Assembly: GCA_036172245.1 (NCBI GenBank)
Contig: JAYWIR010000003.1
Location: 1,488,001 to 1,552,000 of the forward strand
Direction: 5' to 3'
Source of the DNA: Raillietiella orientalis
Lineage: Eukaryota
DNA length: 64,000 bases
Below are positions 1 to 64,000 of the stretch, piece by piece. Below the pieces are notes generated by a model. That model saw nothing but the letters and a program-made list of their open reading frames with translations. It made no database searches and was not told the origin of the DNA. The translations under genes and the position numbers were made by a program. The first letter of the stretch is position 1. Every line of letters starts with the position of its first letter.

Positions 1-3000
1 TCGGTCAGCGTCGAGAGGCGGCAGCACGTTGACGTCCTGGTCACACACTTTGAAGAAGACTTCCTGGGAGCAGCCCGGCTTCAGGGCTCCTGGGGGAATG
101 ACGATGGCCACCCCCGTCTCCGGGGACTCCAGGATGCCTCCCGTGTGATCGAACACACCTCGGGCGGCTGCAATGATGCGGTGGTTCTCGTACTGGTTGG
201 GGTTGTCGCCGCCGGAGCGGTCCGGGCTGCCGGAGGGAAGGGCGCCGCCCCGTGAGAAGCGCGGTAGGTGAGGGCTCTCACCTGTCGGGTTTCCTGTACA
301 GCTCGAAGGCGCTGCCCCGGTGCGGGATCGACAGGGGCCACGGGGCCACGTTCAGATAGTGCTGTGGGGCATCCCGCCTGCGGGGGCAGTCCTCGTGGTT
401 GCGGTCCAGGCTGCTTCCATGCCCCGAGTCGAATCCATTCGCGTCCTCATCCACCGACGCTCCGGGGGTGGGGATGCACGTCCACGCGGCGGCGGCGGCA
501 GCCGGGAAGTTCGCCGCCCTGCCGCCATACCCCCTGGGCTTGGGAGGGGGGAGCGGCTTGCCGCCGCCCGGTCGTCCGTCCGCATCCCTGCCGGATGCAG
601 CGCGTGACGCGGGCCGGCAGGCAGGACCGCCCGGTACGCACCGTTCGCCCGGGCCCGGCGGGGATGTGAAGCGGGTAAACCTGTAGGGGTCGTGTGGGCT
701 CGCCGAGGTGACCTCGTCGCCGCTGCCGTCCCGCGAGGGCTGGGGGAGCGGCGGGGGCGCCTCCGCCGCCTTCCCATGCGCAAGGATGCCCTCTCCGAAG
801 AGGCGTTCCGTCGCGGAGCGGCTCCTGCCGGGCTTCATGCTGCGGTCGACTTTGGGGGGCAGCGAGGGAGCCGCGCAGCCGGCGGGCTGGAGGGCACGCA
901 CGGCGGCGGCGGCGTGCTGCGCGGGCAGCTCCTGAGGACATGGAGTCGCCGTCGTCGGATGAGGGAAGAAGGCGGGGCACTCGCTCCCCTGCTGGACGCG
1001 CTCCTTCGGGTACGAACGCTGCTGCCACCTTCCGGCGAGCGCAGGATTCAGAGTCGCGCCGCCGCCGCGGGGAGGCGAAGTCCTCGCGGATCTCGCCTGA
1101 CTAGAGATGGCGGCTTCGCGGTAAGGCGGAGGGCCACTGTTCAGAGGGGGAGGCCGCGCCGCCTCGTCGTCGCAGGACAGGTTCGGGTCGGACGAGGACC
1201 GGAGGAAGCGGTGGTGCTCCCCCGACGGGGACTGGTGGGGCGGCAGGCCATCCGCGGCCACCTCCTGGTCAGACTCCGGAGAAGATGCGTACGACTGGCG
1301 CATCGCCATCGGGAAAAAGAAGTCGTCGGAGGCGGGCTTATCGTGCTGGAGGGGGGGCCGCACGGAAGGAGGCGTTGCCAGGGGCGACCCCGCCCGGCTT
1401 CCCCTACTTACCTGGTTCTCCGACATCCATATGGGCTGCGATCGCTGGCGGTCGATGGCTTCGACCACCTTCGGATACCACGACTCGCCCGGGACCAGAG
1501 GCACGGTAGAGGTGAACAGGTACACCCAGTGATGCTCCAGGCGCACGATCTCCTCGTAGAGGCGCCTGCTGCTGCAGTGCATCGACCTGGAAGCCCAGAT
1601 CCGTGCGGTCGCTGGGAGGGCCCTCCTCACTTTGGCAGCCCTGCTCGCAGCAGCTTGATGTCCTGGCGGGAGTCGGAGCGCAGGAAGACCGTGATGGGGT
1701 ACAGGTGGATGCTGTTAAGCCGGTTCACGCAGTTGGGCGTGACGTCCAGCAGCGCGTGCTTGCCGCGCGCCATGATCTCCCGGATGGCGCTTATGCTGAC
1801 GATCTTCTGCTTGTTCTCCTCCTCGTTGTCCATCTCTGCTCGAACCGAGAGGGCGCGCAAAGGGGAGGGACGGGTAGTTACACGCGGGCGTTGGGAGGTT
1901 TCCTTACGAGGGGAGGCGAACTCGTCGGGGTGGTCACGCAGCAGCCTCTCACGAGTGATGTCAGCCACCGGGCCGAAGAGCACCACCGGCCTCACGAAAT
2001 CCGGCATGCACAAGACGACCCTTTCGTAGGCCGGCAGCTTCGTCAGGGAGTCGCACCAGGCCAGGTCGTCCCAGTGGTCCTTGGAGGTGCATTTCGCTCC
2101 TTCGAATCTGCCGCGGGAGGAAAAATGCGCGTTTTGCCCACCTTCACCAGAGACTTGGAGCGGCGGTTGTGGCGGCGCCTGCGGAAGAAGCTGCCCCTGC
2201 CTTCGGACGTGGAGATCTTCTTGATAGCACTGAGTTGGGCCTCCGCCAGCTCGTCGGCGCGGCTGCGGTTCGGGATGGCGCCCCGCTGAGTCTCCTGGTT
2301 ATTGCGGCCGATCCGGTAGGCCAGCCAGGATCCCAGGACCCCGTTGTGCAGGGTGTCCGTGACGTGGAACACGTCCCCGCGGACAAAGCTCATCTCGCCC
2401 TTGGCGGGGCTCTCGTAACTGAAATGAGTCCTGGAGGCGGCGGAGTGCCTTCCCGCGGAAGGGGGGGAGGGGGGCGCGGTGGTCAGTGGGCAGGTGGTCA
2501 CCGTATGTAGAAGGAATCCAGGCGCTGAGACGCCACAACCTGGTCGTATTCATCGGGGGAGTAACGGACCAGCAGCTCGACTTGGTCCTGCAGCGACAGG
2601 AGGTAAAGCACGGCTTCCTCGCGGGTGACGCCCCGCATGTCCATGTGGTTCACCTTGGGGAGAGAGGCGTTTCGGGCGCATGGAAGCAGCAGCGGGGGGG
2701 GAGGAGGGAAGGGAAGAACAAGAAGAAGGGGACATTGCGGCACCTTCAGGATTTTGTCTCCCGACTGGAGCCCCTGCAGAGAAGCCGGGCTCCCGGGGTG
2801 GACGGACGTGACGAAGATGCCTGCGATGTTCCCGCCCGTGAGGCGGATGCCCACGGAACCCTCCTTCTTGAACGACACCGTGCGGAGCTGCGTGCCGGAA
2901 GGGCTGGAACTTCGAACCCAAGGGGGCGGGCAGCGAGGGACGGGTGACCTTGCTTTCGCGCGGCGCAGGCCTTGCTGGCAGTCGGCGGACAGCCCCGAAT

Positions 3001-30813: not shown

Positions 30814-32628
30814 ATGAATGAGAACATTCCATGCCGTGATGCTTTCCCTAAATCTTTGGATTCATATTGGTAAGCATTATAACAGTTTGGAAAATTCAGT
30901 GATGAAATATTTTCTTTTTATATTCAATTTTTTTTTGAAGTTTTGTGCATCATGTTAACTTTCAAGATGTGTATTAATTTTTACGTATAATTCAATTAAC
31001 ATAGCCAAGAATGGTCGAAAACGTTTGAATGCTGTAATCAACACAGACTGTCACAGTTAGCATTTAAAGGAGAACTGACAAGTAGATTCTTTCGGAGTGT
31101 TATTTGGAGGATCTTTTTGGGAACTCTACCTCCAAGCATCAGACAATGGGGCACAATTGCACAAAAACATGGAAAGGAGTACTTTCAGCTTTTGCGGGAT
31201 CATGATCTTGATCCCCATAATGTTGAAGCTGATATTGATCCAAATCTCCACAACCCTTTATCCAATGATGTTCATGTAAGAAAAGTTTTGTCGGGAAATA
31301 TTGCATTATTGCGTGAATCACAGAGTCCTTGGAATCGTTTCTTCTGTGATAAGGAACTGAAGGATGTTATAAAAAGAGATATTGTGCGATGCTTTCCAGA
31401 GATTAGTTTGTTCCAGTCAAGTGAAATTCAGGAAATTGGAGTACGAGTGCTTTTTATATTTGCTCGGGAGCATTCAGCATTAAATTATAAACAGGTAACA
31501 CGGAAAATGCAAGTTCACTCTTAAAGTACTCCAAGGGAATGCATGAATTACTTGGCATCTTGCTTCTGATATTGCACCAGGATCAGCAAGCATTCCAACA
31601 TGCACAGATGTTGCTTAACAAAGAGTAATTGACTCACAGGTTTTACATTAACATACTTGTCCGTAGTTCTAGCTTGGGGCATTTTCAACACATAATGTTA
31701 TTGTTACATTCAGTTCTCAACCCATCTTGCCTGGAATCTGAACTTTAGTAAGCACTATATTGTTGGCTCCAGGAGTCACAGTTGTTTTCTCTAGTTATTC
31801 TTTTTCTGCACTTATGAAGCAAGTTGCACCTCTTTATAGAGATGCAGATGGTTCTTCTGTTAGCAGAGGAATAACAGACAAATCTCATCAAGTTCAGGTT
31901 TGCTGTCTTTCATCTTGCACAGTGATGTTTAGGTAGATGAATCAGAGTTCTGTGCATCTTGGAATGGTGTTGCATCATTTGCATCATAATCTGCTTCTGA
32001 AACATGACCCCATGCTTTATTTACATTTGGAACAACTTAATATAAATCCACAGTTCTATGGAATGTAGGTGAGCCCATTGTATTAGAATGAAGAGACTTT
32101 TTAATGTAGCCGTTGGATGCGTTTATTGTTAATCCGAGAATTCCACATCACTGCTGTGCTGAAGCTATGGGATGCCTTGCTAGTTGATATAACGCTTCTT
32201 GAATTCATTTGTGTGGCCATGCTAATGAGCATCCGTGAACAGTGTAAGTGCACACCAATTATCTGACACCTGTGCATCAGTATTGCAAGGCAATCACATG
32301 CAAGTTTTGTCTTGTCTCATGCATCATCAGTTCTCCAGTGACAACATGCATCTTCTACAGTTTGCTCTGAAATTGTATAATTCAAACATGAAGAACCCTC
32401 TTGATTTAATGTAAGCATGTTTTGGATTTGATAGTTACTTTGTCTTCCAGACATAGAAGAGGCATACTGCAAGTTCCGGACACAACTCAACACAAACATT
32501 CACTTTTTCACTCAAATAATAAGTCTGTAGTCAAGAAAACTAGTGCTAGTATTCTGTTAGCTCTGCAAGAAAAACTGATGAGATCACTGAAAACATGTAA
32601 GATTCAAGATGCTCATTTAAAAAAGTGA
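30814..32628 (+). CDS. TBC1D5: TBC1 domain family member 5 (Rab7 GAP, retromer-associated), 10 exons, ~446 aa as modelled
   Basis: Exons 30814-30869, 31005-31275, 31324-31494, 31536-31624, 31667-31747, 31795-31897, 31937-32064, 32110-32243, 32281-32410 and 32451-32628 splice in frame. Motifs: FRSVIWRIFLG, HNPLS..SPWNRFFCDKEL, Arg finger IKRDIVRCFP, Gln finger YKQGMHELL, LHQDQQAF, KHDPMLYLHLEQLNINPQFYGIRWMRLL, LKLWDAL. First and last exons are less certain. Confidence 0.93.
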
Positions 32629-38727: not shown

Positions 38728-38866
<139 letters not shown>

Positions 38867-39131: not shown

Positions 39132-40358
39132 TGGCAGGCACTTGTAAAACCGATGAAGAATGCAATAAACCCAATGTTAGGCAGAAATATCCATATGAGT
39201 GTCGAAATTTTACGTGCCAGTGTCCTGGTGGAACATTTGAATGGAGGGGAAGTACTTGTGTTACAGGTAAGAAGCAGATTAAAAATAACTTATCTTTTTG
39301 TTTTTAGAACCTATTTATAGCGTATGTGATCAAGATGAAGATTGCATCCCTTTTCCTTTAAAGTGTATTCAGAAAAAATGCAAATGTGAAAAAGAAGAAT
39401 TAATATGGAATGGCTTGGATTGTATTATCAAGCCTGCTCTGAGTCATGCTGCTTCAGAAACATCACAGACTAATTCAGATTATTTTTATTTCTTTCTTCT
39501 TCTTATATTGGTTGTTGCAGTTTATTTGTATTGCAACCGACAGAAGATAGCAGACTGCTGCAGTAAGTTCAAAGGTCAGCCTGAAAATCCTTCACCGGAA
39601 GCATACTACAGAAATGTCCCTACTGATCCTGGTTTGTATATAGTTTGATGGTGTGTATTGTCTCATGATATTATGCAATAGGACCAGAACCTGTTGCTTC
39701 ATACACTCCAGGTGGAATACCTACAGATCCTTTCCCACCAAAGCAACCAGGATCAGTGTATCCTACACATCCAGATCCTAATGTTCCAACATATCCTGTG
39801 CAACCTGGAATGAACATTCCTTCTTATCCTCATCTACCCCCAGGAGTTCCTGATTACCCCATTCCACCTAATGCAGGAGTTCCCAGTTATCCCACCCCAC
39901 CAAGTGCAGGAGGTCCCATTTATCCCACCCCACCAAGTGCAGGAGGTCCCATTTATCCCACCCCACCGAGTGCAGGAGGTCCCAGTTACCCCACCCCACC
40001 GAGTGCAGGAGGTCCCAGTTACCCCACCCCACCGAGTGCAGGAGGTCCTAGTTACCCCACCCCACCGAGTGCAGGAGGTCCTAGTTACCCCACCCCACCA
40101 AGTGCAGGAGGTCCCAGCTACCCCAATCTCCCCAACACAAGTGTTCCTGGTTATCCCATGCCACCCAATGCTCCCAGTTATCCTGCCCCATCCTCTGTGG
40201 ATCCTCCATCACATTCTATTCCTGAGCCTGGTCATGTGTATCCTAGCCTTCCTGCCGAATCAGATTCTTCATCCAAGTCAGATCTCCCTGATGAACCCAA
40301 TGTGCAGGTGACTCCTCGAGGACATAGGAGAATTATTCGTAAAGTTGTCGAGGATTAA
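39132..40358 (+). CDS. Single-pass membrane protein with two 6-Cys EB-like modules, a TM helix and a Pro/Tyr-rich repeat tail; N-terminal exon(s) probably start near 38870
   Basis: Exons 39132-39266 ([34 protein letters not shown]), 39308-39631 ([62 protein letters not shown]) and 39682-40358 ([11 protein letters not shown] repeats, stop at 40358). Both internal introns are phase 1, GT..AG, 41 and 50 nt. Confidence 0.8.
39885..40115 (+). repeat. Coding tandem repeat, 7 x 33 bp ([12 protein letters not shown])
   Basis: Consensus agttaccccaccccaccgagtgcaggaggtccc, seven near-identical units with degenerate flanking units. Confidence 0.95.
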
Positions 40359-41728: not shown

Positions 41729-41959
41729 TTCCTTGGCTCTGTTAATACACGTATTAAATCTGCATGACCCAGTTCATCTAAAACAGCAGTTATTGGAATC
41801 CGCCCTGCAAATTCGGGTACTAAACCAAATTTGATTAAATCCCCAGGCTGAACATCATGTAAATTTCCTTTGCTCTTCAGACTGGTTTATATCTGCTCCA
41901 AAGCCAACAGATGTTCCCTTTTTTCTTGCTTCAATAATTTTATCAAGGTCTTTAAAAGC
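41729..41959 (-). pseudogene. clpX: Bacterial clpX internal fragment (Wolbachia-like), frameshifted
   Basis: AFKDLDKIIEARKKGTSVGFGADINQSEEQRK[fs]LHDVQPGDLIKFGLVPEFAGRIPITAVLDELGHADLIRVLTEPR matches the ClpX sensor-1/box VII region (GAF..L..II; GFGA; PEDLxKFGLIPEFxGRxP; ILTEP). Intronless. Confidence 0.9.
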
Positions 41960-42289
41960 TGCTCCAAAAGAAAAACCAGCGATCCAAATCGGAATGTCTC
42001 TGGGATTATGTTCTTGAAGCCAGTCAACAGCCACCTCAGCGTCAGTTAAATCTCCTACACCCTTATCATAAGTCCCAGTGGATTTTCCAAAACACGAAAG
42101 TCAATTTTCAATGCAGAAAAGTTGTTATTGACAAAAGATGTATATATACTATGCACAATCTTACCATCCATGTTACCACCATACTAAGAGTGATGATGCA
42201 AGACTAGCATAACCGGCGCGTTGGTATCCCTGCTTTGGTGGTATTCGCCTTGTGTTTTTCGTTGCCTTGTTCCAAAAAAATTCTACCAT
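41960..42289 (-). pseudogene. Bacterial alpha/beta-fold hydrolase 5' half (Wolbachia/Rickettsiales-like), 2 frameshifts and 1 stop
   Basis: MVEFFWNKAT[fs]QGEYHQSRDTNAPVMLVLHHHS*YGGNMDGKIVHSIYTSFVNNNFSALKIDFR[fs]FGKSTGTYDKGVGDLTDAEVAVDWLQEHNPRDIPIWIAGFSFGA. Shows the HxHPxxGGxM, (N/D)FRGxGxSxG and GxSxG nucleophile motifs. Shine-Dalgarno-like AGGGAG at 42299-42294 before ATG 42289. Confidence 0.9.
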
Positions 42290-44349
42290 AGTGCTCCCTA
42301 ACAAAAACCTGCCTGAAATAATGCGGACTACATATAAGATTATTTATAAATCATATAGTAATTTCACTGTTATTACAATAAATTTTTCGTCACATCAAAA
42401 TTCATAGTCAATGGTAAAGAATTTTCTTAATCGAATGACAGATGAACATCTAAGCTCATTTTCTTCAGAATATAGAAATTACACATATGCCGATTATAAT
42501 GCAAGCTGCCCCAGTCAGTAAGAATGTGGAAAAGCGTATAATTGAGGTTTTATCAAAGCAAATTCTAAACCCTTCAAAAAGGGCAGGAAGCAAGGAAGAG
42601 TCTTGCTTCTTGTCCTCTTCCCAGCTTTCATTCTTTCTTTTCCCAGTTTCTATCCTTGTCAATTGGATTTTGTGGTTCAAATTCACGCCATATATCGGCT
42701 CACGGTCGATGGCTCTCTATCCCTACATCTGAAGGATTCGGTTCCCAAGTGGCACACGAAAAGTACAGCTACCCGCACTGTGAACCTACTTGTTTTGTAG
42801 TCCGTTGTCGAAACATCAGTAACCTCATCGATTTTCCGATGGAACGAACAGGCAGTTTTCCCCTTAAGGCCTTAAGACGTGAATCGCACGCGAGTCCACT
42901 TTTCGTCGAGGTACGTGGTCCAGTTGACAGGTTTACAAAATCAAGATTGCTGGGATGTCCAAGGGATTCGAAGGCGACTCATCAAAGGCCAGCGAAAAGT
43001 CCGGAGGTTTCCATCAATGGAAAATACCTTGAAATCCTAATTGAAAATATTTTTCTCTTCCTCAGGATGTTATGGGGAACAAATTAACGCGGCGTTTGTC
43101 AAGGATCCATGTTGGTGCAGAGTAGTAGGTGGATTGTCATCACATAGATTGGAGCCAGAGAGAAGAGCACTCAAGCGAGAGCCAGAGATCGGAAAGCTCA
43201 CCACTCATTACACTATAGTATTTGCTTCTTCTTTGTTTCCAGGATGTCAATCTGTTTGATTACTAGCCCATGTTTGCTTTTTGTTCCCATGTTGCCGTCA
43301 GAGTACTCTCGGAAATCTACTGGTCAATCTGACACTTTCAATTATTAAAGTGCTTATAATAAGTGCACGAAAGTAAGCAGAACCTCTTGTACTTATTTCC
43401 AGCATGCAGGAGATCCTGTTTAAAACTTAACTTGAATTCGCTTCGAATAGGGTTTCTTCTTTTCTTTTGCCACCATCATCATCCTGAGTCAGCTGAGTTG
43501 GTTAGCAATCATTGTCACACCATGGAATGTTGTTTTCCATCTATCCGTATGGAACCTTAGCACAAAAGTAGGGCCGCACTCATTTCAATTATCAGGGCAT
43601 AGGTGGTAACATGCGATCACTTCGAAGTCTTAAATAGACTCATTTCTATTCATCGCGTCAAAAGCAAAAACTTGCTACTCTTTTTCTTAAATCTAGACTG
43701 ACTGCTCCTTCCATGTCATTATGTTTTTCGAATATGTGAAGCTTTCATGCTTGAAGCTGTGAAGCTTTTTAAAGACAACCACGTGTGTGTTTTCGAAGTG
43801 ATTCGCAATTCTGCAGTTAATTTCTACATTGTCCACATCATTTAACCCGGTTGTTGGCGGTTTCACTTGCCTCTTGAAGATATACGTTAGAAGTCTCCTT
43901 ATTTATTACAGTGGTTGATCTCCAGCACATTCATCTTTCACCTTACAATTTTTTTTTCCTCTTTCGAATATGGAAAAAGAGAAGACCAGTTCCAAATCCA
44001 AGGGTGAGCTGGGAAATGCCATCTCTGGACACCACTGCGACCACTTCATGAAGCCCCCTGCCTCTCCTTTTTGTATCACAATCCTCACGAGAGGCTAGAC
44101 GCTGGACGGATGGTCTGAAGCGGAAAGCACTTTGTGGGAACTCAAGGCTGAGGATGCATGTGAAACATCTCGTTGCCATACAAAGGGATGCTGTCTTCGG
44201 CATCCTAACGCCGAAAAAGATGGAGATGGACCCTGGGCGTAAGCTATTTCAAGTCAAGCCAGGTTCTGGTTCAGGATGGGGGCTCTATGCTTCGTCAGGC
44301 TGCTCCGCACTGACCACCCGTTTTTCCCCATTCCGACTCGCGGTGGGGT

Positions 44350-47050
44350 GAATTTATTCAACAACTTTAGGTCACAGCATTCGTAACATTGAGCAGTACC
44401 ACAGTCTGATACTCACTTTCACTTTCATAAGTGTTTTTCGATGCCACTGATTGTCGCTTGCTTATGACATACAAAGGTATTCTCCGGGAATGCAGTCACT
44501 GGGTTCTTGTGGGGATTCCACTCGACTGTTCCTCAATCCTTTGGAGGATGTAGCGGTAAGTACAAGAGGGAATACATCAACAGCTTCCAATTCCTACTTA
44601 TTTTTCAAATAGTCCCAGAATCAGAATGTCCACTGCCGGCGTATTAATCATTCGGTTCCGCATTTTTGCCTTTCTTATCACGATGCTGCTGATGGAGAGA
44701 GAGATGGTAGTGCGGACCAATGGGCTGTATCGGGAACGCTGCCGTTCCCTTCAAACATCCCAGCCAGGATCTTCATCTTGTTCATTCTCTGCAGACCTGT
44801 CACCTCCTTCATCTTGGCCCAGTAGCGCTGCAGGAGCGGACAGGTGAGTATGTGGAGTTGGTTTTCCCAGACTCCATAGGCCTTGCAGATCTCGTCCTGA
44901 GCTTTCCCCGACCAGGGCTTTGTCCTCGTGCCGCTCAGGATGCCTCCGTGATAAAACATCAGGGGGTCATCCTGAGGGTCGGGTGGTAAGTCTCTCGTCC
45001 AGACCGTGGTTCTAGCCACCAGCGAGTTCACCTGGAGGCATCCGTAGCGGCCGGCGGCAGTAGACACAACTTCCTCCTCCTCCGGATTCTCCATCAGCGT
45101 CTCAGATGGTTTGCTCTGGTGATCAGGCTCCAGCAGCTGGGTTCCTGATGTTTCCAGATCTCTCGATACTTGTGGGTAAATCTTCCCACCATTTTTCCAG
45201 TGAGGCGAAACAGTCGCATCTTCTGGCGGCCGCCGCTTGTTGCAAACTGCTCGTGGTCCCTGATAGATCATCCTTGACCTCTGGAAAATCCACTCCTTGG
45301 TTTCCCTAGGGATGCACATGAAGTATGAGATGACCATGCATGGCCATTTCGTCTTCCAAATTTCTTTACTCCTTGGCACTAGTTTGAGTTGTTGGGTGTT
45401 CACGAGTTCCTGCCTTCTTTTCCAAGTTGGATCGATGCCTCCCCGTTTTCCGTGTTTGCCTATCAAGGCAGACAACAGGCCTCTCGAGTTGGTTTGCAGC
45501 TGCGAGAAAGATCTGTGTCGCATAAGGCCACTTGCCCCATTTGGTGGCAAGATGCAGGATTTGTCGCGCGTGCAGAAGATCCACGGATCGCTCCAGCGAC
45601 TTCATCCCGATCCCGCCTTTCTCTCGTGGTCGGCACAAGAGTTTTGGTCTGACCCGCGGCTTGAACTGTTTTCACAATATCTTCCGCTGCAGTTCTACGT
45701 CCTTGCTTGTCCGCTCGTCCAATCGGCAGAAGGCTGCTCCAAGGAGCATCTTGGGGAGGAGGACTCCATTCCAAAGGTTTGCCCTCTGCTTTTGGTAGAA
45801 GTCGAGCCGGACGTATTTCGCAGCACCTTCTCTCGTTTTCCCCGGGATTTATTTCCACACCTGATGCGGAGCCCAGTCGTCGCCGATGTGGATTCCCAGG
45901 TACTTCATCTCGCCCACCGCTCGGAATCCTTGCTCCGTTAACGCGGAGAGGTCCAGGATTCCTATGGGCAATAGCTGGGATTTCTGGGCGTTGATCTTCA
46001 ATCCCAGGCCAGTTTCCATGGATTGGACGACACTGAGGAACGCATGCTGATCCCTCTCTCCCTTCAGAAAGAATAGAAGATCGCCCGCATACGCTAGGTG
46101 CGTCAGTCTGCTGTCAAAGCGTATTCCTTCAAGACGCCCGCTACTGTGGAACAGCGACGACACCGCCTCCATATACACCACGAACAGCATTGGACTGAGG
46201 GCGTCTCCTTGGCGTATTCCCCTTTCCATCCGGATGACTTCCGTGTCATGCCTATTGATAATTCTTCTGCAGTACTGTCCTTCGAGATTCTTCTCCATAT
46301 AGTCTCTGAAGTGCTTCGGGAAGCCCACTTTCCTCAAGATCTTCAGCAGCATCCTATGGTTCACGGTGTCCGTGAAACCATAGGATATCCGTGAAATTTA
46401 GCACCAGATGTCACCGATGTAGCGACTGTAGTCTATGATGGTCACCACCTAGCCTATGGTGACCCTGACCACCCGTGCGCATCGCGAAGCTCAAGAATTG
46501 GCTAGAAACTTGGTAGTTGCATTTATAATCGTCCGCCATGTATGCATGTCGCGGAGGTCTCCATCGGGAAGGAGGCGCGCAGGGCAGACACTCCGTTTGC
46601 TTTCCTGCTCACGTGTGCATCAGAGGTGCTTTGCCTCCTAGCACTGGCAAAATTATACTGTTAAGCCGACCCTTCCCGGAGTTTTCTGGTTTCTCACATT
46701 CCTTCTTCGAAACGCAGAACCGCGCATCCAGACTATTGCTAAATCGATGGAGAACTAGCTGTTTTTGGTAACTGGTACCATTGCTCATTTGGAACGGGAA
46801 CCGGTACCAGTACACGAGAGTAAGCGTACCGTTAAAAGTAGGAGTGTCACCTGTGTCGTTCTCGGAAATCCTTCGGGCTTGAAACCCAAGGACGTCCCCC
46901 CTGACAGTTTGCAGATCCTCTGGAGAACCAGGGGGGATCCAGGACGGAGGACTACAGAGCCTGATTGTGAGCTGGTGCACTTACTGGCGCGCCCCATTGC
47001 TCACCCTCTCCAAGGCAAACGCAGTCGACCCCGAGCGCGGGTACCGGCTT
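44350..47050 (-). mobile_element. Degenerate L1/Tx1-like non-LTR retrotransposon (ORF1 relic, RT, post-RT region; internally deleted)
   Basis: RT at 45849-46380: RGIRQGDALSPMLF, LAYAGD (YADD decayed), GLKINAQKSQ, MKYLGI. PREKGGIG at ~45620. ORF1-like TIRLCSPPSWIP..FNGTLTL at 46609-46980. Boundaries approximate. Confidence 0.85.
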
Positions 47051-62699: not shown

Positions 62700-63400
62700 C
62701 GCCCCCAATACGCACACATTGACTTTCCCTTCTCCCCTACTCCCACGCGTTGTTGCTGGTTGTGTATGTTGCAGACTCTTGGAATGACCATCCACTCGGC
62801 TTTGCACGCTTCGCGACCCAAAGTTCCCGCCACAACTGCACTTCGACCGCACGCGGGTGACATTCCTCACTGTCCTCTGTCCGGTTCATGCCCTGCCTGG
62901 GCATGCAAAAATTGCAGTAGAGCGGTCCTTCACGCTATTTAGAGGGGGCATCGAGTGAAGTTTTTCAATCAGCAATAATCGCGCCTCGGTATAACCTTTT
63001 TGCCTACGGTGCTGCCGCTGCAGAAAGCGCGGGGGCAGTCATTGCCATGAACGAGCAGACTCTTCGCTGTGATCCACTAAATTCTCACAGCAACTTCTTC
63101 CGCAGATGGCCACACTGTCTCATGCGTTCTTCCAGGTCAAGTGCTGCCAATTTTGAAATGAGCTTTTCGGTGTACTCGAAGTATTCCTGACCACCTTCTC
63201 CGAGCATTTGTTGTTTGCGTTTCCCTGAGCAAGCCGTTGGCTTCCGACCTCATAACGGCGACTGCACACGTGCTTCGTATTTTCATTAAAACGAAAGTTT
63301 CACAAGTTTCTAGCAATCACCACACACGAATTTTGGCCATCGCGCACCTCAGGATCCGTTGCTGGAACACTACAGCTGAGCTTTAGAAATCCTCACTTGC
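62700..63400 (-). mobile_element. Probable Ty3/gypsy-like gag relic
   Basis: RKQQMLGEGGQEYFEYTEKLISKLAALDLEE resembles the retrotransposon gag QxxxEsvxeY motif, followed by a decayed knuckle LYCNFC..GHE. Confidence 0.4.
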
Positions 63401-63669
63401 TGCTCCTAGAAAATTGTAAAAAAGAAATAATTTCAGATGAACACAATAAGAAGATTTTCTTTCTGGCATCGATTCTCGAAAACGCAGAGAAAAACAACTT
63501 TATAAAAACTAACCTGAAAGAGGGAGAAGAAAATGAAACATCTGGAAATACGAGATAAAACGTTTAGAGAGCAGAAATGGTGTTCAACATAGAATGCCAC
63601 TCTATCAGAGAAGACCTTCATCCAATGCTCCAACTTGGAATGGACATCGTATGCACAACGAATCGCATG

Positions 63670-63672
<3 letters not shown>

Positions 63673-63730
<58 letters not shown>
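63673..63730. repeat. (TC)14(GA)15 compound microsatellite forming a perfect palindrome
   Basis: Directly visible, centre between 63700 and 63701. Confidence 0.95.
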
Positions 63731-63734
<4 letters not shown>

Positions 63735-64000
63735 CAAGGAGCTGAGAAATCAACAGCAAGTATGGTCGATCTGTTCTGGAAATACCCCCAATTCGCGTAT
63801 TCCACGACAGATCTTCTTGGATAACACCTGCACAAGCTTTCGGAAACCGAGGACGAAAACTTCGAATGTAAAGCGCTTCCCCAAATCATCGATGACACAA
63901 ATTCAATCATTCTGAAATGCCAAACGCGACGGGTGCCGCTCAAGGCCGAAGTCGAGACGAAGCAGAAGAGTCCTTTGGGATGCATAAGGGAGAAGTACAA

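Follow-up and report, generated by a model that had tools for sequence, protein, structure and literature searches.

The window analysed here, a 64,000-nucleotide stretch of contig JAYWIR010000003.1 (positions 1,488,001 to 1,552,000), carries an 876-bp insert of Wolbachia DNA at 41729-42604, within eukaryotic sequence. The insert is nested inside the diversity of the genus, and is made up of fragments of three genes, encoding a cysteine desulfurase, an α/β hydrolase and ClpX, each of which is both truncated and broken. It is very probably a nuclear Wolbachia transfer (nuwt), that is, Wolbachia DNA which entered a germline chromosome of the host and has since decayed without function.

Extent and gene content of the insert

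An earlier note, made from the sequence alone, had described a segment of about 700 bp at 41729-42420. Its low end was exact, as the match ended at 41729 in every genome. Its high end was too short by 184 bp: when a longer query was used in blastn searches, homology reached 42604 in the majority of matching loci and 42576 in the others. The features of the insert are listed in Table 1. Alignment to Wolbachia loci showed that the desulfurase, the spacer and the hydrolase retain their native order. The DNA upstream of the hydrolase that had been noticed earlier is native Wolbachia spacer, and the added stretch also holds the desulfurase codons. The longest open frame in the insert is 81 codons.

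Translation of the minus strand from 42282 to 41710 gave four stop-to-stop reading pieces: NFFGTRQRKTQGEYHQSRDTNAPVMLVLHHHS; YGGNMDGKIVHSIYTSFVNNNFSALKIDFRVLENPLGLMIRV; LSCFGKSTGTYDKGVGDLTDAEVAVDWLQEHNPRDIPIWIAGFSFGAAFKDLDKIIEARKKGTSVGFGADINQSEEQRKFT; and TSLKSKGNLHDVQPGDLIKFGLVPEFAGRIPITAVLDELGHADLIRVLTEPRKFWGED. The first reads ...APVMLVLHHHS, and is followed by a TAG stop at 42184-42186 and then by YGGNMDGKIV.... In the third piece, ...GKSTGTYDKG...IWIAGFSFGA is joined to AFKDLDKIIEARKKGTSVGFGAD, and the last piece contains DLIKFGLVPEFAGRIPITAVLDEL. These reading pieces, together with the NCBIfam and protein matches described below, bear out the earlier description of the N-terminal half of a bacterial α/β hydrolase followed by a piece of ClpX on the minus strand. 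The three frameshifts and one stop counted in the earlier note were also found. The hydrolase has a 2-bp deletion at about 42260/61, a 1-bp deletion at about 42093/94 and a CAA-to-TAG change that produces the stop, and clpX has an 8-bp deletion at about 41863/64. The Shine-Dalgarno-like AGGGAG is likewise present, at 42294-42299, 5 nt before the ATG at 42287-42289, and is the counterpart of an AGGAG found at the same position in Wolbachia.

The hydrolase fragment ends just after the G-F-S-F-G(-A) nucleophile elbow, at about codon 113 of the 232-237 present in living strains. In the reference strain used for the codon counts below, the hydrolase begins with GTG. A Wolbachia homologue (locus L053, 1576-2289) matches the Pfam families Hydrolase_4 and Peptidase_S15. 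A complete α/β hydrolase fold with a Ser-Asp-His triad is not encoded in the insert: the C-terminal half is missing, and the remainder is interrupted by two frameshifts and one stop. In the α/β hydrolase fold the acid and the histidine of the triad sit in this missing half.

Two reading pieces of the clpX fragment matched the NCBIfam ClpX profile NF003745, with E-values of 8e-14 on profile positions 279-326 and 1.8e-4 on 242-277. Pfam searches with the short, broken pieces gave only sub-threshold matches (E 0.12 and 0.19). In a BLASTP comparison with a Wolbachia ClpX, 36 of 49 residues were identical over residues 283-331. The fragment covers only profile positions of about 242-326 of 418, and not the full length of ClpX (NF003745 / TIGR00382) with its zinc-binding N-domain, Walker motifs and C-terminal domain. 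It contains no introns. It is a gene fragment, not a ClpX protein.

In locus L053 the gene upstream of, and divergent from, the hydrolase (299-1435, minus strand) encodes a 378-residue class-V aminotransferase of the NifS/IscS cysteine desulfurase type, with profile E-values of 2e-63 for Aminotran_5 and 2e-94 for NifS (TIGR03402). The plus strand of the window at 42442-42604 reads ...YADYNASCP / APVSKNVEKRIIEVLSKQILNPSK..., which aligns to residues 20-51 of the L053 desulfurase; BLASTP of the window open reading frame (ORF) against this protein gave 17 of 32 identical residues (E 3e-8). This part of the insert has suffered an 11-bp deletion and a 1-bp insertion. Relative to the majority of A- and B-clade genomes the spacer contains several insertions and deletions (indels), and 30 of 104 spacer sites that are conserved in the A and B clades are changed in the insert.

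Table 1. Features of the insert and of the host DNA in the window
Feature	Position	Strand	Evidence or remarks
Cysteine desulfurase 5′ fragment, about 50 codons, class-V aminotransferase / NifS-IscS type	42442..42604	+	blastn to Wolbachia loci; BLASTP to L053 homologue
Native Wolbachia spacer between divergent desulfurase and hydrolase genes, including AGGGAG	42290..42441	.	Collinear with the same spacer in Wolbachia loci
α/β hydrolase, N-terminal ~110 codons	41960..42289	-	ORFs, protein matches, nucleotide alignments
Junction of hydrolase and clpX donor pieces	41958..41973	.	Both matches cross; microhomology TGGAG.A(GC)
Internal clpX fragment, ~81 codons, about residues 247-331 of 424	41729..41973	-	NCBIfam NF003745, BLAST, BLASTP
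TBC1D5-like (RabGAP-TBC) host gene	31000-32400	+	Very short GT..AG introns, ~37-48 nt
Cysteine-rich single-pass membrane protein ORF	39289-39645	+	Weak EB-module match, E 0.005
33-bp coding tandem repeat, 8.2 copies	39854-40125	+	Downstream of membrane protein ORF, within 39289-40358
Degenerate retroelement of the long interspersed nuclear element (LINE) type	44681-46397	-	RVT_1 E 4e-17 on 45852-46397; 307-codon frame downstream without Pfam match
U4 small nuclear RNA, full length	62891-63029	-	55.9 bits against a gathering score of 46

Similarity of the insert to Wolbachia genomes

The insert was compared with 98 Anaplasmataceae genomes, 60 of which belong to the genus Wolbachia (genomes are given below by their number in this set, such as G001). 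All 60 Wolbachia genomes matched in the nucleotide search, and both pieces of the insert were found in 58 of them. The best nucleotide identities by BLAST were 81% for the hydrolase part (G009, G048, G017, G059 and G053, among others) and 87% for the clpX part (G007); in an alignment to named loci, with gaps excluded, clpX identity reached 88.6%. The hydrolase-side piece had a blastn E-value of 1e-128 and the clpX piece one of 2e-82. Of the 38 other genomes only 20 matched. None of these scored more than 104 bits, with identities of 67-81% over parts of the sequence, whereas the best Wolbachia genome scored 453 bits. These matches, the gap in score within the family and the nesting of the insert in Wolbachia diversity show that the DNA is homologous to a Wolbachia genome, as the earlier note had proposed.

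A protein search with the 81-residue piece gave 34 matches among 85 candidates. Fourteen were α/β hydrolases of 144-234 residues, 72-84% identical to the first half of the query, and the other 20 were ClpX-type proteins, 68-81% identical to its second half. Twenty of the matches carried Wolbachia names, two were named after arthropods (Trichonephila clavata and Timema poppense), two had generic JGI names and ten were unnamed. No mitochondrial CLPX name occurred among the 34. The refuting condition set in the earlier note, best matches to mitochondrial CLPX or to taxa outside the Rickettsiales, thus turned out in favour of Wolbachia.

A host mitochondrial CLPX, another eukaryotic gene, or DNA of a member of the Rickettsiales other than Wolbachia might be considered as the source, given that ClpX is universal and that the Pfam matches on the pieces are as weak as stated above. 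In 26 named loci, however, Wolbachia clpX is 73-89% identical to the piece at the nucleotide level, the piece is free of introns, and it is contiguous with a Wolbachia hydrolase, spacer and desulfurase in native order. A source of this kind is extremely improbable, and was rejected on the matches in 60 of 60 Wolbachia genomes, the low scores in the 38 others and the nesting of the insert in the tree.

The junction between the hydrolase and clpX pieces

In most genomes the ends of the hydrolase and clpX matches share about 14 nt of the window, 41960-41973. At the junction the hydrolase reads ...TTTTGGAGCA followed by TGGGTG, clpX reads ...TGTGGAGGAGCTTTTGAAG, and the window reads ...TTTTGGAGCAGCTTTTAAAG. 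The crossover falls in a shared TGGAG.A of 5-7 nt. A search of metagenome contigs with the 33-nt junction sequence gave no exact match.

The spacing of the donor genes was taken from the coordinates in about 25 of the 60 Wolbachia genomes. The hydrolase and clpX were adjacent in none of these, and lay between 16 kb and several hundred kb apart. In G001 they occupy opposite strands, at 216.8 kb and 332.7 kb, and likewise in G009, at 198.6 kb and 17.3 kb. In G048 they are at 768 kb and 658 kb on the same strand with clpX upstream, and in G018 they are 16 kb apart, also with clpX upstream and so in the wrong order. In G002 (23 kb apart) and G031 (57 kb apart) the two genes are collinear. The pairs in G018 and G002 were the closest seen. 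Since the donor genes are far apart, the insert is a mosaic of two unlinked donor pieces.

A variant of this interpretation, differing in the order of events, is that the insert is the remnant of a much larger nuwt and that the hydrolase-clpX junction was formed by microhomology-mediated deletion. A single deletion could have produced the junction from a donor arranged like G002 or G031, the TGGAG.A microhomology is present at the junction, and fragmentation of nuwts by neutral genomic processes is described in the cited part of PMC12693587. A single deletion is possible only with some donor arrangements, namely those of the G002 and G031 types. In most of the approximately 25 genomes the two genes differ in strand or are wrongly ordered, and this applies to all the members of the nearest clade that were inspected (G009, G048, G017, G059, G053, G007 and G055). 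Furthermore, the other ~63 kb of the window contained no match to any of five Wolbachia genomes, all of which matched the insert as a positive control, and thus no other Wolbachia remnant was seen within the 64 kb. We regard a larger ancestral insert as possible, but somewhat doubtful.

Decay of the insert

The insert is not part of a living bacterial genome, as is evident from its truncated genes, the stop, the three frameshifts in the hydrolase and clpX, and the further indels. Changes at each codon position were also counted, using only columns where a 12-genome A clade and a 7-genome B clade agree (Table 2). First and second positions had changed at about 10% of sites in the insert, compared with 2-4% in three living lineages and 7-9% in wCori. 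The difference between about 10% and 2-4% indicates a loss of constraint. It is the frameshifts and the stop, ahead of the codon positions, that bear the main weight of the evidence for decay.

Table 2. Sites changed at each codon position, as changed/available sites
Sequence	1st	2nd	3rd
Insert	22/220	22/227	40/188
G001	6/233	9/236	26/191
G006	6/233	5/236	41/191
G039	7/230	5/234	24/189
wCori (long branch)	20/233	16/236	51/191

In the tree described below, the insert lies at the end of a branch of 0.30 changes per site, compared with a median of 0.022. Changes on this branch were skewed from AT to GC, with 56 of A>G or T>C against 31 of G>A or C>T. The GC content of the insert is 36.9%, that of the Wolbachia homologues is 34.5-36% and that of the flanks is 43-44%. 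This shift fits a drift towards the composition of the host. We read an excess of approximately 7-10% change as neutral and as having arisen after insertion. With mutation rates as generally given for animals, this suggests an age of between a few million and tens of millions of years, according to the rate in the host.

A misassembly, in which Wolbachia reads from a live infection had been joined into a host contig, would give bacterial sequence at the same place. Contamination of host assemblies by Wolbachia is common, and two of the protein matches bear host names (those of T. clavata and T. poppense). A live contaminant is expected to be long, intact and collinear with Wolbachia genomes. 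The insert, in contrast, is only 876 bp long with non-Wolbachia DNA on both sides within the assembly, it is 81-87% identical to the closest of the 60 genomes, and it fuses genes separated by 16 kb to several hundred kb in the genomes inspected. It also carries a stop and three frameshifts, one of them in the normally indispensable clpX. A chimeric assembly is therefore very unlikely. Because of the stop, the frameshifts, the indels, the fusion of unlinked genes and the relaxed codon constraint, the insert is a neutrally decaying relic and not a contaminant.

A fragment of this kind might instead have been domesticated, being transcribed within an untranslated region (UTR) or a non-coding RNA of the host and serving a host function. 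The insert lies ~1.4 kb downstream of a host ORF on the plus strand that ends near 40358, and one Wolbachia-like fragment in a likely 3′ UTR of a nematode gene is mentioned in the cited part of PMC4046930. No frame in the insert exceeds 81 codons, however, each of the three genes is cut short, and the changes are distributed over all codon positions. According to the passages cited from PMC12693587 and PMC4046930, inserts of this kind are mostly without function. There is little to recommend domestication, and we consider it about as improbable as misassembly.

Phylogenetic placement of the donor

A tree was built by a careful method from a concatenated hydrolase and clpX alignment of 41 rows and 941 columns, in which the highest identity of the insert to any sequence was 82% over 864 columns. 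The insert was nested in Wolbachia, inside a 20-row A+B clade (branch values 96/98, starred) that includes the wCon group, which we take to be supergroup B. Within this clade it was sister to a group of 12 genomes containing WOLB0025 and the strain of Psylliodes chrysocephala, wPch (90/46). The latter strain clusters with supergroup A, as stated in the cited part of PMC10487741.

Derived sites were also scored. Of 25 sites with a state derived in B, 21 are ancestral in the insert and 3 carry the B state; of 9 sites with a state derived in A, 4 are shared by the insert. On this evidence the donor was a crown-group Wolbachia, which most likely branched near the base of supergroup A and not within the sampled crown of A or B. 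The sister relation to A is weakly indicated, and 0.9 kb of decayed DNA is too little for assignment to a supergroup. The phylogeny called for in the earlier note thus placed the insert within Wolbachia and inside the A+B clade, and approximately unbiased (AU) tests did not single out a supergroup.

Assessment of the evidence

Several observations weigh against a decayed nuclear transfer from the A+B group, or against parts of this interpretation. The junctions of the insert and its single-copy depth are those of the assembly alone. The wCori lineage, which is living, is also high in first- and second-position change, and the argument from codon positions is therefore quantitative and not absolute. 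In the insert itself, third positions have changed more (21%) than first and second positions (10%). This excess implies that part of the long branch represents divergence of the living donor and not decay, and that the split between the two is an estimate; it suggests a donor that was already distinct from the A/B consensus during its life as a symbiont. The donor genome could have contained the chimeric junction from the outset. With regard to the donor, a tree of the hydrolase only (44 rows, quick method) gave a different position, near G001, in a set of 16 rows that also holds G006 and strains of supergroups C, D, F and J (97). Grouping with B had a p value of 0.34 in the AU tests, grouping with the C/D/F/J/G001 clade 0.23 and grouping with G001 0.145, and none of these positions was rejected.

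Host DNA around the insert

The remainder of the window has the character of a eukaryotic chromosome, and the setting reported earlier, between an intron-containing host gene and retroelements, agrees within the assembly with the TBC1D5-like gene with its GT..AG introns, the U4 small nuclear RNA and a LINE-type reverse transcriptase (Table 1). An exon of the TBC1D5-like gene gave 718 matches among 1.84 billion representatives, the best being 35-45% identical. Twenty of these matches were looked up by name, including 18 of the top 20 (all but ranks 10 and 12), and came from molluscs, ctenophores, nematodes, sponges, jawless fish, annelids, hemichordates, amphioxus and several arthropods. The same exon gave nothing at E <= 1e-5 in the protein homologue search and no taxon signal in an Atlas search. 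The host is thus an animal that lacks a close annotated relative in the collections searched. The four Atlas clusters nearest to the cysteine-rich membrane protein were all arthropod, which is a weak lead to the identity of the host and not a test of it. The reverse transcriptase piece had one protein relative, unnamed and 30% identical. Among 137 host-side ORFs, Pfam searches detected only RVT_1, a weak RabGAP-TBC match and the weak EB module. No tRNA genes were found in the window.

At a permissive threshold, Rfam searches added only sub-threshold palindromic matches. Several unrelated microRNA models gave such matches on both strands at 63663-63742, a site that is more likely to be a palindromic or simple repeat than a microRNA gene. 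A (TA)68 microsatellite is present at 38728-38863. The region from 1 to 4 kb has a GC content of 59-72% and long stop-free frames on both strands, with no Pfam match; between 28 and 44 kb the GC content is 28-44%. The observed/expected ratio of CpG is 0.5-0.7 only across the gene-bearing 28-44 kb, and about 1 outside genes. This depletion over genes may be due to gene-body methylation.

Discussion

A nuclear transfer from Wolbachia could have arisen as follows. Wolbachia DNA freed in germline cells of the host would have been captured when a chromosome break was repaired by end joining. The two pieces may have been ligated to each other at capture, or may be what is left of a larger insert after microhomology-mediated deletion. 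Some 7-10% of neutral change would then have built up since insertion. The product would have no function, and would be a fossil of infection by a Wolbachia within or near the A+B group. Such a history resembles that of nuclear mitochondrial DNA segments (numts), in which organelle DNA is caught at chromosome breaks, often as mosaics joined at short microhomologies, and then decays neutrally. The insert shares with numts both the mosaic structure at a microhomology and the decay; it differs in that its donor was a facultative bacterial symbiont and not an organelle.

Nuwts are described in the cited part of PMC12693587 as varying in size between a few hundred bp and near-whole genomes, as mostly pseudogenised and neutral, and as giving noisy supergroup calls when the pieces are short. 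In that study of filarial nematodes ('Ghosts of symbionts past'), inserts were placed in a tree of living Wolbachia in order to read past infections, as was done here. The noise reported there for short pieces is mirrored in our data by the conflicting trees and the AU tests. The filarial inserts in the cited part derive from supergroups C, D, F and J; the insert described here does not group with such strains in the best tree, although that position was not rejected in the AU test (p 0.23).

The insert also resembles the Wolbachia fossils found in the lungworm Dictyocaulus viviparus (Koutsovoulos et al. 2014, PMC4046930). As presented in the part of that paper cited here, these are short sequences co-assembled with the host, with frameshifts and stops, and are neutral remains of an old infection. 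Their mean identity to living Wolbachia is 84.5%, close to the 82% overall for the present insert. The lungworm fragments amount to ~1 Mb and lie near filarial and clade F strains, whereas we found one 876-bp insert that is closest to A+B. In Drosophila ananassae and Brugia malayi, Wolbachia DNA is also present in a host chromosome (PMC4299567, PMC3849323). The transfers in those species, in the parts of the reports cited, are recent, large, duplicated and partly transcribed, whereas the insert examined here is small, old, truncated and single in the window.

Nuclear Wolbachia inserts of this well-known kind serve as fossils of past infections. The present one would show that the host lineage, or an ancestor of it, carried a Wolbachia of the A+B group some 7-10% of neutral change ago. 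It also provides a compact example of how an insert can be built up, by the joining of two unlinked pieces of donor DNA at a short microhomology. In practical terms, bacterial-like sequence such as this in a eukaryotic assembly should neither be filtered out as contamination nor be annotated as a gene.

The significance of the finding is modest unless the host is unexpected. The known hosts of Wolbachia are arthropods and nematodes. The donor might represent a lineage outside the 60 species-level genomes, branching off the stem to supergroup A, with a host that is a metazoan without a close annotated relative; we think this combination unlikely. If it were true, and if the host were to lie outside the arthropods and nematodes or in a group without known Wolbachia, the insert would extend the historical host range of Wolbachia.

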